A program made the translations under genes and the position numbers. The notes beneath the pieces are model-generated. The model was given only the letters and a program-made list of their open reading frames with translations, did no database searches and was not told where the DNA came from. A stretch of DNA of 62,023 bases, counting the filler, from Bonamia ostreae (lineage: Eukaryota): NCBI GenBank assembly GCA_040357525.1. It is 27 parts of 27 records of this genome, joined end to end, with 100 filler letters (N's around TTAATTAATTAA, not from the genome) between each part and the next. Parts side by side here need not be neighbours in the genome. Positions count along the whole stretch, not along the records: positions 2,322 to 4,542 come from JBDODL010000964.1; positions 4,643 to 6,858 come from JBDODL010000965.1; positions 6,959 to 9,170 come from JBDODL010000966.1; positions 9,271 to 11,479 come from JBDODL010000967.1; positions 11,580 to 13,787 come from JBDODL010000968.1; positions 13,888 to 16,093 come from JBDODL010000969.1; positions 16,194 to 18,398 come from JBDODL010000970.1; positions 18,499 to 20,703 come from JBDODL010000971.1; 19 more parts are not named here. One strand, 5' to 3'. Shown here one piece after another: positions 2,372-57,169 of this stretch (position 1 is the stretch's first letter; the number at the start of each line of letters is the position of its first letter).

Positions 2372-4542
2372 AAAACGATAAACGACAAAAACATGAAACT
2401 TTTAATATTCGCCGCAATGTCTTCCGAAAGCGATTCAGAAAACGTGAAACTGTTCATTCAATTGTTCGAACAAATTTTAAACTACTCGAACAAAACTACT
2501 TTCTTCCGCAACAAAGGAATCGATTTCATAAACGACCAATTGGAAAAATCCACCAAATTTTATACCAAACAATGTTTTCTCCATTTCAAAAAATCAGACA
2601 AACAAAACGAAAATCCGGAAAAGCTTAAAAAACAAAACGAAAAAACCGAAAAACTGATTTTGCTCTTGGTCAAAATAATCGACAGTTCCGATGCAATCAA
2701 AAATCATCTCCGCGAAAGCCAAACTTTTTTCGCTTTAATCCCTTTATTGGCCGTAGAAAACCTAAAAGTCCGAAAAGCAGCTTTCGATTTTTTCGTTCCG
2801 TTGATGAACAGTTCGCACCACACGTTTCCAAATCTCGCGTCGACGGGATTTTTCGTGTTCACGGCCAACCATCTTTTCCGCCCCGAAAGCGACGCCCAAA
2901 CTTTAATTCCGATTCTGAAGTTTAGCCACAGAAAACAGGTTGTAACAGTCAAACATGTACGAAACTTTACAAAAAAGAGAGAAGAGCAGATATTGGTTTC
3001 GAACGGATCCGCCCTCGGAGCGATGTTCCCAGAACCAGTTGTCAATCTGATCGATTCCTCTTCAACCGAAAAAGCGGTTTCTGTCTTTGACGCGGATTCG
3101 AAGATAAATCGACCTGACGTTCTCTGGTAACAACAAAAACCTAAAAATGAAGGACGGAAAACATGAAAAAACGGCTCAAAACAACTTTGGAGAAATGGAC
3201 CGACGAATATTTTTTGAAGCTCAAAGACGATTTTGGTTTAGTGAAAAGTCCGGAAAAGATTTTTGCGAAAATCTGCGAGAATGGCGTGACTTATAAAGAG
3301 TGCGAAGATAACATTTCGATATCGGGAATTTATTTAAAATCGTTTTTGGAAAGCGAAAATTGCAAAATCGAAAATTCAGAACAATTTTTAGACCAAATTT
3401 TGGCAAATTTGGCGGGAAATGGCGAAAAGTTGAGCGACAAAACAATTTTTATTCTTTGTGTGCACAAAATCGCTGAAAACTATTCAAATTTGCCAAAAAT
3501 TATAAACTTTGAGCACTTTAAAGATTTGAAATCAGACTTCGATTTCAATTTAATAAACAAAAAATTGCAAAAAAATTGCGTTTTTGTAGATGAAAAAACA
3601 AAAGTGGTTAAATGCGCACTCGATTTAGTTGATTTTCTGTTTTCGTTGAGCGAACAAAACAGAAAATCGGACGGAGCGTCGGATTTCGTAAACGCAGTTG
3701 TGGCACTTTCCAGAAAATTGCTGGGAAAAAATGGTTTGAACAAATTGGAAAATGGCGTTTTGGCTGTTTTGGTCGATTTTTTGACTGTCGCGATTAAAAA
3801 ATATGACCAAATTGCTGTCGCGATGTTTTTCGGCAAATTATTTTTTACTAAAAAAACAAAAAAATTTTTACAAACAAAAATATTTTCAATAAAATTTAGC
3901 CAACGCGAAGAAAACAAATTTTTGGAAGCAGTTCAAAAACATCTCATAAAAGCGACAGATAAAAGCTTAAAAAACAACGAAAATACGAAAAAATTAACTA
4001 ATTTTTTAATAAAAATGTCCGATTTTCTCCCTCTTCGAACTTCTCAATTCGAAAAGGGGATTCCGATTCTTGTTTTGAATATTATTGTTAACGAAACAAT
4101 GTCGGATGACGTCTCTGAAATTTTATCAGAATATTTTTCGCATTTTTTGGTTGAATCGCCATTTATCGATTTTGGAATCGATAACGGTTTTTTGAATTAA
4201 ATTTGACGTTATCAAATTTGATCAAAATTGTTAAATTGACATTTAAAATGGTCTCAAAAAATTAGGAAAAACAAGATATAACAGCAAAGAAAAGACAATC
4301 GAAAATTGGAGAATGTTCCAAAAAACTATTTTTGACATATTTTCCGACTTTTTGTCAAAAGGCATTTTAGATAAAATCATCGAGGGACAATTGTTTTCCA
4401 AAATTTGGAATAAAAATTTTGTCACACCGTTTTTGATCTGGTCTGAAGAAGATAGTCAAACCCTCAAAAATCGAATTTTTGTTGGAACAGATAATATCAG
4501 GTTTAACAAATTTTAATTGTAAAACTATTTTAAAGAAATAAA
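2372..4542 (+). CDS. RME-8/DNAJC13-like ARM-repeat protein, internal fragment, spliced
   Basis: Spliced SALGAMFPEPVVNLI...RPDVLWTENMKKRL and TPFLIWSEE resemble RME-8 IWN repeats. Introns at 3127-3152, 3825-3899 and about 4187-4265. Confidence 0.55.
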
Positions 4543-4642
4543 NNNNNNNNNNNNNNNNNNNNNNNNNNNNNNNNNNNNNNNNNNNNTTAATTAATTAANN
4601 NNNNNNNNNNNNNNNNNNNNNNNNNNNNNNNNNNNNNNNNNN

Positions 4643-5295
4643 TGCAATTCGAAAACAAAATTAAATTTATAACGAAAAAAATATTTTAAAACAAACATTG
4701 CCAATTCGCCTGAGACGCCTCTTCTTCCCGCGTGAATCCATTCACAACAAGTTGGACGAACAGCAATCTTAGCAAAAAACGTCATGTCAAAATTGACGAC
4801 GTCGAAGAAACGCACAAAACAATCGCTTTGCGAAGCGGTGGCCAGCTGCAAACCGTCGCCAGACAAAACAAGACAGCTCAGAGCGCCCTTGTGCGCCTTG
4901 AACTCTTTCACGAATTCAAGACAGTCTCTTCTTTTCTGCCAACGTTTTCTGCGCCAAAATTTGACCACTCCGTCTGCGCTCGCAGTCACTGCAAAGTCAG
5001 TTTTCGAGAAGGCGACGTGCGTCACGTTTGCGCGGTGCATAAAACTGCGTTCGTAATGGCGCGCGTTCGGAAGCTCGTCCAAATCCGATTTTTCATTCTG
5101 TTTTTTTTTATTATTTGACGACATTGCAATTTTTACAAAAACTTCATTTTTTGTTTTTACGATATCTCCGTTTTGGAATGAGCTCGTAATTTTAGGCTTT
5201 TTGTTATTGGATATATTGTGTGATTGCAGTTCGGACTTTGTTTTGTTGGGGGGAGGCATTGCTGGCCCGATATCAGATTTGAGTTCATCTGACAT
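4643..5295 (-). CDS. PPWD1: WD40-cyclophilin spliceosomal protein, N-terminal part
   Basis: IGPAMPP, LPNARHYERSFMHRANVTHV, TASADGVVKFW and FFDVVNFDM are PPWD1 signatures. Confidence 0.9.
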
Positions 5296-5542
5296 TTTAT
5301 TGTCTAAATTGCTTTAGTAGTTTGCTGTATAAAAGCAAAGTTTGTGTAAAATGAAATTTTCGCGATTTTGATATCAAAAATGAAAATAATCTTTTTATTA
5401 TAATTAAAAATAAAAAATATTGAGAAAAAAGAAAGACTGATTATATTTTTTTATTTTGCAGATTTTTTTGTCGAAGAAATTGCGAGAAAATTTTTTATTT
5501 TGAAAGAGAGAAATTTGATTATATAAAAATGATTGCTAGAAG

Positions 5543-54730: not shown

Positions 54731-55331
54731 TGTCATTTATAAATATTTTGCTTCGAACAATCTGTCATTCATCGATTTTTTAACCAATTAAACATACTTT
54801 TGTTTCCGGTGTCTCAATATAAATTTTTCAATGTAAATTTCTCGGTGCCTTCAATCGAAATTTCGCTCAATCGTTTACTTTATAAAGTTTTCGCTTTCGC
54901 CAAAACTTCTTTGTCAAGTTTTTTTATTTCTTAAAATCTACTACTCAAAAGCCCATTTAACTTTGTAAAATTAAATTATTAAATTTGTGGTTTAGTCAAC
55001 AATCAGTGCATTTAAGGTTACTTTTTTCAGTGCAGTTTTAAGATAAGAGCAAAATCTGCATTTTACTTTATTAAACAAATTTTGAACGTGTGTCCAAAAA
55101 TTAGCAAAAACCCAAAACGGCTACAATTTATCTAAAAATTTATCTAATTTCAACATGTATCNNNNNNNNNNNNNNNNNNNNNNNNNNNNNNNNNNNNNNN
55201 NNNNNTTAATTAATTAANNNNNNNNNNNNNNNNNNNNNNNNNNNNNNNNNNNNNNNNNNNNTCTTTATTAGTGTTATTGTTCCGCGTCCCAATCTTGTTA
55301 AAAAAAAGTTGCTAAAAACGTTAATAAAATA

Positions 55332-55658
55332 ATGGAGATCTATAGAATGTTGTACTTATCTATTCCTTTTGTATTTACTATGTCGTTGATTGCATTTGTA
55401 TTCTGGCAGTTGTTTAAATGTTATAATCGTAAAAAAAATTTGAAAATTGTCCCTATAAACAGCCTTGAAGATGAGGAAAGATGCCCTATTTGTCAAGATG
55501 AATTTAAAGAGGATGAGGGTATGACTGTAACTAAAACTACTTGCAATCATCATTTTCATTCTGAATGCATTAAAACATCTTTGACACATAATGGTGGATG
55601 CCCGACGTGTAGATTTGATTTGGAATTAGATATGGCACCCAATGAATTAAATTATTGA
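55332..55658 (+). CDS. Small TM + RING-H2 E3 ligase (ATL-like architecture)
   Basis: N-terminal TM, then CPICQDEF...CNHHFHSECI...CPTCR. Confidence 0.9.
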   Translation: MEIYRMLYLSIPFVFTMSLIAFVFWQLFKCYNRKKNLKIVPINSLEDEERCPICQDEFKEDEGMTVTKTTCNHHFHSECIKTSLTHNGGCPTCRFDLELDMAPNELNY

Positions 55659-56566
55659 CAAATTTTCTAGTGCAGTTGACGTTACTAAGTCAAACCCAAT
55701 CCACCCAAGTCTTTTCTAATGGGCCAAAAACTAATTTTTTCTTTTTCGAAAAACAAAACACCGTGTTGAACGTTTTCAAAATATTTTTCTTCGTTTAAAA
55801 AGAAATTTCTTGCTTTTCATTTAAAAACGGATCTTTAATCTTAAAAATGCGACCTCTTGGATTTTGTATCAAATCTTTTCGGAATTATAGAATGCAGCAA
55901 AAAATTATAAATTTCAGTTAATTTGGTTTCAGTCACTTCAATAATAATAATAACGGTCATGTTTTGCAAGTTCGTTAAAGTTTTAATCGATTTTTAAACA
56001 TGTTGGGAAATCTTTAAATCAAGGAAAACTTTAAAATTTTGTTTAACATCCGATAAAAAATTTTCACTATTTTCGCCATAAAAATTTTCCCAAATCAAAA
56101 ATAAAAAATTGAGGCCATTTTAAATATAAATTTCTTTATTGCTCTGAGAAATCGTTCCAACGAAGATCCTTTTCTACAACAAACAGAAACGAACGGATAT
56201 GTAAAACCAAAAGTAGTGTTGAGGCGAAAAGCGGGATCAATTTTCAGAAGATATTTTGAAAGCGATATAAAAATTATCTTTCCAAAGAAGATGTAAATTG
56301 AAAAGATTCTATAAAATCGAAAGCGCTAGAATCGATAAATAAATGTACTTCTTGAGGAGGACAGACATCCTACGAAAAATAAGTTTCGCAATGTTGTCCA
56401 AACAAGAATTAAAAATAAACATTTAACAATTAACACAAATAATATTTAACGACGACATGAACAACATTATGTTTTTGCATTTAAGATTTTAATAAATTGC
56501 AAACTGCTGAACAAACATACTAAATTTAACCATAAATTAATTAAAGTTCCTTTCCTAAAATAGATA

Positions 56567-57169
56567 ATGGACATAATCGACACATTTATACCTGGATTTT
56601 CAGATCAGACCAAAAGTGTGCTGCGAATGGATTTAAGACGCGTTTTTGAAAATTAAAAAAAAGCAAATTTTGAAGATTTTGGCTTTTGCAGTAACTTTCA
56701 TGTCCGCTTTTCTATTCTGGAAATTTTCAATGGCTTTGACCGGTTCCGACTCTCCCGGAGTCGTCGTTCTGACGTTTTCGCGACAACATTTAGTCAATCG
56801 ATGGAGCCCGGTTTCTACCGCGGCGACATTTTGTTCGTCGTCGGCCCAAAGAATCTGCGCGCCGGCGACATCGTCGTTTTCCAGACGGCCGCGAACGACA
56901 TTCCGATCGTGCACAGATTGATGGAAATCAGAGAAACGCCGAATGGTCGGACCTATCTGACGAAAGGCGACAACAACAAAGTGAACGACCGCGGACTGTA
57001 TTCAAAGGACCTCTGGTTTCTGTCGGAAGAGCACCTGCAAGGCAAGATCGTTGGTTACATCCCGAATCTTGGCTACATCACAATCATGATTAGTTCCACT
57101 CCGACTTCGCGCGCGCTGGCGTTCGCGCTAATGGGCGTTTATTACATCTTTTCGAGGGAAGAAGAGTAA
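56567..57169 (+). CDS. SEC11: Signal peptidase complex catalytic subunit, 3 exons
   Basis: SPGVVVLT|QSMEPGFYRGD, IPIVHR and LTKGDNN..DRGLY. Introns at 56642-56663 and 56774-56793. Confidence 0.95.

Follow-up and report, generated by a model that had tools for sequence, protein, structure and literature searches.

To our knowledge, how a megadalton spliceosome recognizes and loops an intron of about 20 nucleotides (nt) is unsolved, and each independent lineage with introns of this size narrows the possible answers. Bonamia ostreae is a haplosporidian (Ascetosporea, Rhizaria) parasite of flat oysters; older papers on haplosporidian actin genes may mention small introns. This work describes the introns, and in particular those of 19-26 nt (micro-introns), in the protein-coding genes of a 62,023-base stretch of B. 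ostreae DNA with a G+C content of ~30% (hereafter the window). A preliminary description of the window had listed nine short segments as examples of a micro-intron system with a non-standard splice grammar.

The nucleomorph introns of the chlorarachniophyte Bigelowiella natans measure 18-21 nt and, in the passages of PMC6009652 that deal with them, lack any motif other than GU-AG as well as a recognizable branch A; a 'molecular caliper' has been proposed for these introns (Gilson 2006, as quoted in PMC6009652). Within what the excerpted literature covers, this is the case that the Bonamia introns resemble most closely: both are AU-rich and bounded by GU-AG, overlap in size and have no other evident motif or branch A, and the caliper idea agrees with the strong AT contrast found in Bonamia. 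The nucleomorph range is narrow, whereas Bonamia introns span 19-560 nt, and because a single Bonamia gene may contain both micro-introns and introns of 44-560 nt, length cannot be the sole ruler there. The Bonamia introns also belong to the nuclear genome of a heterotrophic parasite, whereas the nucleomorph is a relict algal nucleus, and they prefer U at positions +3 to +5, whereas the same passages of PMC6009652 mention no +3 U preference.

The closest studied relatives, the mikrocytids Mikrocytos mackini and Paramikrocytos canceri, show an extreme end state. According to the accessible portion of PMC10245619, their 224 introns are 16-17 nt long (217/224 being 16 nt) and highly conserved in sequence, and U1 is reported as not identified. 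Mikrocytids share with Bonamia the class Ascetosporea, the parasitism of marine invertebrates and extremely short introns in housekeeping genes. Their introns are uniform, few and conserved, whereas those of Bonamia are at least 19 nt long (20 nt with RNA support), heterogeneous, degenerate and dense. Paramecium introns (20-34 nt) are of similar size and, as excerpted in PMC6009652, have reduced splicing signals like those of Bonamia. According to the excerpt of PMC9505925, the introns of Stentor coeruleus measure 15-16 nt, their branch A is fixed (at position 10 of 15 in 91%), and its U1 is canonical (ACUUACCU). Stentor and Bonamia both have tiny GU-AG introns without a strong branch consensus, but the A-runs of Bonamia vary in position and its donors misfit a canonical U1. 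For B. ostreae itself, the available part of the annotation paper, which used funannotate and transcript data, speaks of "canonical introns" with a mean of 2 per messenger RNA (mRNA) (PMC11069148). A literature search of article texts found no published account of how large the introns of Bonamia or other haplosporidians are or which signals they carry, although the supplements of PMC11069148 may hold intron statistics; the excerpts of PMC13746701, PMC3014934 and PMC6133090 held nothing relevant.

Removal of the introns from mRNA

RNA and DNA contigs were compared over a single stretch between masks, 16194-18398 (~2.2 kilobases, kb), which contains CDC16 and a neighboring membrane-protein gene, both on the plus strand. 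The masks that limit this comparison are paired runs of 44 N with a 12-nt island, found every ~2.3 kb; they were placed by the operator and have no biological meaning, and a few scaffold gaps occur besides. A 2,198-nt RNA contig of X18 skips four segments of CDC16, namely 16375-16406 (32 nt, GTAAAA..AAAAG), 16554-16573 (20 nt, GTTTTC..TTTAG, with the next exon starting at TPR profile position 17), 16688-16712 (25 nt, GTTTTT..ATCTAG, outside the list of the preliminary description) and 16855-16875 (21 nt, GTTGGA..AAAAG). The contig also leaves out 17694-17815 (122 nt, GTTTAA..AAAAAG) of the neighboring gene, a GT-AG joint of which the register was checked on the sequence. Segment 16855-16875 is skipped too in a contig of X20, an RNA-Seq library of a different study with coverage of 16725-16967 only in this stretch; X6 contributed nothing. 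A 2,029-nt DNA contig of X1 retains all four CDC16 segments, and 5/5 introns of the compared stretch are absent from the RNA contigs and present in the DNA contig. The RNA nature of X18, a guessed label, is backed by its gene-only coverage, with silent stretches as control: its depth is zero in the intergenic bins 17008-17155 and 18044-18117, both covered by the X1 DNA. The preliminary description had named retention of its segments in RNA as a refuting outcome, and the two CDC16 segments that it listed, 16554-16573 and 16855-16875, are skipped.

Public B. ostreae proteins support five further introns. The SEC11 protein P0121 (186 amino acids) matches with 100% identity and is, residue for residue, the model spliced at 56642-56663 (22 nt) and 56774-56793 (20 nt), both on the plus strand; homologues read ..VVVLSGSMEP.. 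over the second junction. The S-adenosylmethionine synthase P0001, equally 100% identical, needs two introns on the minus strand of MetK: 44690-45249 (560 nt, GTTTTG..AAAAAG, mostly tandem repeats), where the protein joins AAYA/ARWIAK, and 44476-44534 (59 nt, GTTTGC..AATTAG), where it joins DTDLTN/LILENF. Because P0001 and P0121, both attributed to B. ostreae by their sources, match at 100% identity, the window is B. ostreae nuclear DNA; the sequencing runs that contain it come from oyster or mollusc samples. The TBP protein P0241 is 89% identical overall to the window translation, and identical but for one removed stretch, the 51-nt intron 54512-54562 (plus strand, GTATTT..GCAAAG), which is absent from 3/3 aligned homologues as well. 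Being in frame and stop-free, this intron is invisible to scans of open reading frames (ORFs), and intron counts based on frame breaks are therefore underestimates.

The public TBP model P0241 (138 amino acids) starts at an internal Met at 54263 and is without two upstream exons (53964-54262), so that a 19-nt and a 67-nt intron are missing from it. Either the tiny introns or a short contig probably led to this error of annotation. The micro-introns of B. ostreae are partly implicit in public data, as public models splice some (SEC11) and miss others. Gene finders and read mappers with a default minimum intron size will break such genes, and the annotation of this commercially important oyster pathogen depends on knowing the intron grammar.

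Introns supported by an RNA contig or an exact public protein were labeled as class A, and GT..AG termini are found in 10/10 of them. The micro-introns are confirmed as real spliceosomal-type GT-AG introns, removed from the mRNA exactly at GT...AG. It is extremely improbable that the segments are instead assembly frameshifts, pseudogenes or annotation errors. Such a reading could point to ORF-only scans, which yield many chance frame-restoring GT-AG segments, and to at least one false candidate from such a scan, 58097-58117 (21 nt), where homology puts a 99-nt intron. Against it, an independent DNA contig has the segments, RNA contigs of two studies are without them exactly at GT..AG, and both homologues and public proteins are contiguous over the junctions.

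The other introns were curated gene by gene in ~20 genes, not in every gene of the window. GT-AG joins were enumerated and compared with Pfam profile coordinates, PDB matches and tblastn of homologues. Introns supported by homology or profile continuity were labeled as class B, and plausible candidates as class C. The class B search was restricted to GT-AG, and these 22 introns give no test of GT-AG termini. Support was placed on RNA and homology, not on frame restoration, because ORF statistics fail to separate GT-AG and yield false positives. On ORFs alone, frame-joining segments sorted by dinucleotide pair and length neither favor GT-AG nor peak at 19-23 nt, and a filtered ORF-only list of 370 candidate segments was mostly noise. 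Codon usage, scored after training on 16 ORFs, was a poor guide to whether sequence is coding, and 9/20 short exon pieces had no Pfam match, among them pieces of ZIP, RPC5 and OSCP and the upstream exon of PFDN6.

The resulting set comprises 32 supported introns in 17 genes (10 class A, 22 class B), with lengths of 19, 20 (x4), 21, 22 (x3), 23 (x2), 25, 26 (x2), 32, 44, 51, 52, 59, 60, 67 (x2), 70, 82, 86 (x2), 99, 122, 137, 230, 460 and 560 nt. Aside from tandem repeats, most introns measure ~19-100 nt. Micro-introns make up 14/32 (~45%), and three further short candidates, in OSCP, ZIP and RPC5, are plausible. The introns are dense, with up to 4 per 700 nt of CDC16, and short and long ones occur in one gene, as in MND1 (23, 82 and 26 nt), TBP (19, 67 and 51 nt) and SF3B4 (22 and 60 nt). 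With introns of 50-500 nt neighboring micro-introns within one gene, a pure length ruler fails for Bonamia. All nine segments cited in the preliminary description lie where it placed them and have the sequences that it gave. Eight are supported as introns (TBP, UBC12, two in CDC16, two in SEC11, MND1 and PFDN6), while the OSCP segment is ambiguous. It had also counted more than 20 frame-restoring introns of 19-27 nt; such introns are real, but the number reached among the ~20 curated genes is 14 plus 3 plausible ones.

Splice-site signals and intron composition

Positions +3 to +5 of the 5' splice site are purine-A-G in almost all eukaryotes. Bonamia 5' sites go against this usual pattern and favor U at these positions. 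Donor position +3 is T in 24/32 introns (A in 4, C in 4, G in 0), compared with a window background of 0.44 for GTT among GTN (binomial p = 4e-4). T also occupies +4 in 20/32 and +5 in 15/32 introns, G is found at +5 in 3/32, and GTTT opens 18/32. By subset of 31 introns, +3 is T in 12/14 micro-introns, in 12/17 longer introns and in 16/23 introns outside the list of the preliminary description; in class A the count is 8/9, or 8/10 with the 51-nt TBP intron (GTA) added later. Because the +3 T preference holds in longer introns too, the GTT grammar is a trait of the organism's introns generally and there is no separate micro-intron class. A reading of this grammar as the property of a separate micro-intron system is accordingly not supported, since introns of 44-560 nt, such as those of MetK (560 nt) and G-alpha (460 nt), have GTT donors and AAG acceptors just as often.

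At the 3' end, position -3 is A in 19/32 introns, T in 11, C in 2 and G in 0. The frequent AAG acceptors noted before are thus present, but their excess is near the base-composition expectation (AAG background among NAG 0.41, p = 0.04 on 31 introns), and the unusual acceptor trait is the scarce C and the tolerated A at -3. No pyrimidine tract is visible in introns longer than 40 nt, where the 15 nt that precede AG contain A at 0.47, T at 0.36 and C at 0.10. Toward the 5' end the introns are T-rich, with T at 0.45 and A at 0.36 over the first 10 nt or fewer, and toward the 3' end they are A-rich, with A at 0.49 and T at 0.36 over the last 10 nt or fewer. The combination of GTT donors, A-rich 3' ends, AAG/TAG acceptors and a missing pyrimidine tract had been described from the short segments and holds on the 32 introns, 24 of which are new to the list. 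Minor (U12-type) introns have the 5' site RTATCCTT, with which 0/32 introns open.

Base composition and a small sample could in principle produce such a grammar from ordinary introns in an AT-rich genome. The near-background AAG frequency fits this idea, GTT is already the commonest GTN in the window, and A-rich and T-rich runs are expected at 80% AT. Composition nevertheless leaves the +3 T frequency above background. The absence of G at +3 and -3 and its rarity at +5 would set these introns apart from those of a GTRAGT/YAG organism whatever its composition, the T-to-A asymmetry between the two intron ends is directional, and the 19-26 nt size mode is real, as seen in RNA contigs. We therefore regard a purely compositional origin as unlikely.

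Canonical branch motifs were rejected as an intron signal. The motif yUnAy is unenriched, occurring in 3/14 micro-introns against 4.4 in shuffles and in 10/17 longer introns, likewise below the shuffle mean; CURAy, found in 1/14 micro-introns, also lies below the shuffle mean. This agrees with the lack of a clear branch consensus reported in the preliminary description. The motif TRAA, a U followed by an A-run, occurs in 11/14 micro-introns against 6.3 expected (p = 0.0025, eight motifs tried), at a varying distance from the 3' end. Just 1/14 micro-introns has a length divisible by three; ORF-based detection cannot see stop-free introns of such lengths.

The introns have an AT content of 80%, compared with 57% in exons confirmed by an RNA contig or an exact protein match. 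Across 2,993 nt of such exon sequence, 1/53 decoys (GT..AG segments of 19-26 nt) combines GTT, WAG and an AT content of ≥ 0.70, compared with 11/14 true micro-introns showing each of these features. An AU-rich stretch between GU(U) and (A/U)AG is almost enough to specify the micro-introns.

The layout of a U-run followed by an A-run makes it conceivable, as had been suggested, that base pairing between a U-rich 5' and an A-rich 3' half juxtaposes the splice sites, and 3/14 micro-introns do fold weakly (-0.3 to -2.0 kcal/mol). The minimum free energy is 0 in the other 11/14, however, and mean folding energies equal those of shuffles both at 37 °C (-0.21 versus -0.31, p = 0.14) and at 15 °C (-1.48 versus -1.60, p = 0.86). 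The arms of one intron are no more complementary to each other than to arms of different introns (2.43 of 6 versus 2.47, p = 0.56). With folding equal to the shuffled controls, pairing of the halves was rejected and is given very little credence here.

Selection of the 5' splice site

Of 9 possible pairs with the 5' end of a canonical U1, true donors make 4.28 on average, compared with 4.40 for all 5,408 GT sites in the window (p = 0.47), and the contiguous U1 helix is limited to GU in 18/32 donors. Pairing with a canonical U1 therefore cannot account for the choice of donors.

We consider it likely that these are ordinary-type GT-AG introns of the major spliceosomal class of B. ostreae, worn down almost to a lower size limit. 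The spliceosome would then recognize each intron as a unit, by its shortness, its AU-richness and its borders GU(U) and (A/U)AG, much as in the caliper proposed for nucleomorph introns but with no strict rule on length. The branch adenosine might be drawn from the A-run ~7-17 nt upstream of the 3' site, and the choice of the 5' site would be independent of canonical U1 pairing, with a U1 that may be altered, lost or simply tolerant.

Several points weigh against this interpretation. The call depends on the analyst's choice among GT-AG solutions for 22/32 introns, and non-canonical introns would escape a search that allowed GT-AG only; one junction has no GT-AG solution at all. The sample is a single 62-kb window, the RNA comparison covers one gene region of 2.2 kb, contigs give no splicing efficiency, and the RNA label of X18 is a guess by a tool, though the gene-only coverage agrees with it. 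The TRAA enrichment is weak, variable in position and mostly a restatement of the U-then-A layout. The caliper-like mechanism and the branch site are inferred, and if U1 were altered so as to pair with GUUUUY, ordinary recognition by base pairing would apply again.

Such a change in the small nuclear RNAs (snRNAs) is the first of two ways in which the 5' site could be read differently. U1, and perhaps U6, would carry compensatory changes, for instance a U1 5' end complementary to GUUUUY, so that recognition would still operate by base pairing but with a shifted code. The T preference at +3, +4 and +5, which at +3 exceeds composition, is a positive preference that suggests a reader of that sequence, and the failure of canonical U1 to fit true donors better than random GT sites points the same way. 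On the other hand, the U-run is degenerate, with 8/32 donors being GTA or GTC, and the identification of only U2, U4 and U6 in mikrocytids, as far as the excerpt of PMC10245619 goes, speaks for loss or divergence rather than for a clear compensatory U1. No snRNA gene was found in the window with Rfam at gathering thresholds. Rewired snRNAs are hence a possible but rather doubtful explanation.

Alternatively, the U1 small nuclear ribonucleoprotein (snRNP) may have been lost or become dispensable in Bonamia, with U6, U5 and proteins choosing the 5' site of a U1-independent or reduced spliceosome. The absence of selection for canonical U1 pairing at the donors is compatible with this. In mikrocytids, which are also Ascetosporea, the consulted portion of PMC10245619 lists only U2, U4 and U6 along with 17-19 spliceosomal proteins, and the loss of splicing genes is reported, in the excerpt of PMC11069148, to have started early in ascetosporean evolution. 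The same excerpt assigns that loss to the ancestor of paramyxids and mikrocytids, not to Bonamia. Four spliceosome genes moreover occur in the window, namely PPWD1 (4.8e-29), a DEAH helicase of the Prp2/DHX16 group (3.5e-27), SF3B4 (1.7e-42) and RBM8A/Y14 (2e-18), and because of their presence the splicing machinery of Bonamia is not minimal. None of the four comes from the U1 snRNP or U2AF. These are the genes on which the preliminary description had based the retention of a conventional spliceosome; their presence is borne out, but four genes are insufficient to show retention. We hold a spliceosome that works without U1 to be conceivable, yet on present evidence somewhat questionable.

Returning to worn-down major-class introns, we tentatively propose a wider scheme, which we rate as less likely than not. 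Bonamia would splice its closely spaced introns of 19-26 nt, as well as longer ones, with neither canonical U1 pairing nor a pyrimidine tract, by means of a GUUUU / A-run / WAG code. Together with the mikrocytids, with their uniform 16-nt introns and no U1 found, the Ascetosporea might form a graded natural series along which introns shrank in step with the machinery of early recognition (U1 snRNP, U2AF/SF1), and the new reader of the 5' site might be a U1 whose 5' end has shifted, or there might be none. Taken as a whole, the interpretation given in the preliminary description is partly supported.

Homology-supported introns and other genes of the window

The shortest intron seen is the TBP micro-intron 54071-54089 (plus strand, 19 nt, class B). 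It is the sole GT-AG solution, the next exon covers TBP profile positions 6-36 (of 85) and the spliced P-K-I-H-N fits P-V-L-Q-N of homologues. The second TBP intron, 54178-54244 (plus strand, 67 nt), is likewise the sole solution, with homologue residues contiguous over the junction. All introns described below are class B unless indicated otherwise.

Several introns are placed by profile continuity. In UBC12, the UQ_con match ends at position 108 of 140 at the exon end before the micro-intron 11445-11464 (plus strand, 20 nt), and the unspliced frame stops after 2 codons; just 5 codons follow the intron before an N mask. MND1 (minus strand) contains the micro-intron 24294-24316 (23 nt), after which the downstream exon starts at Mnd1 profile position 9, the intron 24154-24235 (82 nt), with profile positions 9-27 and then 29-60 in the flanking exons, and the micro-intron 24012-24037 (26 nt), which is the only one of 3 GT-AG solutions that preserves the whole helix-turn-helix exon of Mnd1. 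A fourth MND1 intron within 23769-23807 was not counted and is either 23769-23791 (23 nt) or 23779-23807 (29 nt). In the gene with an L51_S25_CI-B8 domain (minus strand), the exon after micro-intron 19108-19130 (23 nt) covers profile positions 4-37 of 52, and a 67-nt intron follows at 18934-19000. PFDN6 (minus strand) has the micro-intron 33574-33595 (22 nt, GTCTAA..TTTAG), which is shorter than the other 3 of its 4 solutions and alone preserves GAVLVKQD, with an upstream exon that has no Pfam match, and the micro-intron 33472-33491 (20 nt), before which Prefoldin_2 positions 52-77 run to the last exon residue and after which the exon has no match. The weakest member of class B is the micro-intron 3127-3152 (plus strand, 26 nt), which joins ORFs 2363-3127 and 3151-4197 as the sole GT-AG solution; neither ORF has a family match.

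Among the spliceosome genes, SF3B4 (minus strand) carries the micro-intron 32582-32603 (22 nt) inside RRM2, with an upstream exon ending in NLFIGNLDPDVDEQ and a next exon covering RRM_1 profile positions 15-53, and the intron 32395-32454 (60 nt), with the junction SADN/ALRNMNGQFLCNR picked among alternatives by the RRM pattern. The 52-nt intron 10437-10488 (plus strand) of Y14/RBM8A is the sole GT-AG solution in the gene with the RBM8A match. The DEAH-helicase gene (minus strand) has introns at 30414-30499 (86 nt, supported by the protein junction) and 30142-30278 (137 nt, mostly tandem repeat, junction IIIDE/AHERT). In this Prp2/DHX16-like gene (28400-31878), helicase motifs I and II are seen and no recognizable helicase-C, HA2 or OB pieces lie downstream; an N mask at 29913-30012 covers ~100 nt of it. 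The gene may be truncated, a pseudogene or misassembled.

Two kinase genes and a P4-ATPase gene on the plus strand contain longer introns. Kinase-1 has 47077-47162 (86 nt), with the junction GAVFK/VQDKTTGEFYA picked among alternatives by the kinase pattern, and 47365-47434 (70 nt). In Kinase-2, the Pkinase profile runs to position 164 and resumes at 164 over the intron 52066-52109 (44 nt, GTAACA..AATAG; junction AFL/APERIE). No single GT-AG intron joins the Kinase-2 exons at 51763-51861, where Pkinase positions 88-102 are missing, which suggests a mini-exon or a non-GT-AG intron. The P4-ATPase (flippase) introns are 58065-58163 (99 nt, junction GDGTN/DVPMIKEANV) and 58370-58599 (230 nt, with a possible 248-nt alternative and no listed repeat array). 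This gene, at 57170-59480, consists of the C-terminal half only, and its N-terminal half is not found upstream within the window; SEC11 ends at 57166, and all that separates it from the P4-ATPase gene is a mask and a 95-nt x2.6 tandem repeat.

The G-alpha intron 7667-8126 (minus strand, 460 nt, GTTTGC..AAAAAAG) consists mostly of a 38-nt tandem repeat; the profile runs to 218 and resumes at 218, with the junction VAISE/YAMKCIE. Three of the four longest introns are swollen by AT-rich tandem repeats with units of 25-101 nt, in arrays at 7703-8093 (G-alpha), 44731-45226 (MetK) and 30148-30256 (DEAH helicase). The length of these three introns is minisatellite expansion, not unique sequence.

The class C candidates all lie on the minus strand. 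OSCP 6495-6515 (21 nt) is frame-joining, with the OSCP profile matched only in 5755-6114; it is ambiguous because an internal ATG could start the downstream ORF (MKKPKIF...) and the flanking pieces have no OSCP match. For the ZIP-transporter candidate 26863-26881 (19 nt) the downstream piece is without Pfam support, and for the RPC5 candidate 36210-36232 (23 nt) the upstream piece is. Elsewhere on the minus strand, a 732-codon ORF at 36910-39105 without a Pfam match carries a 42-nt x5.8 tandem repeat at 36910-37153, and its G+C content of ~37% is markedly above that of its surroundings.

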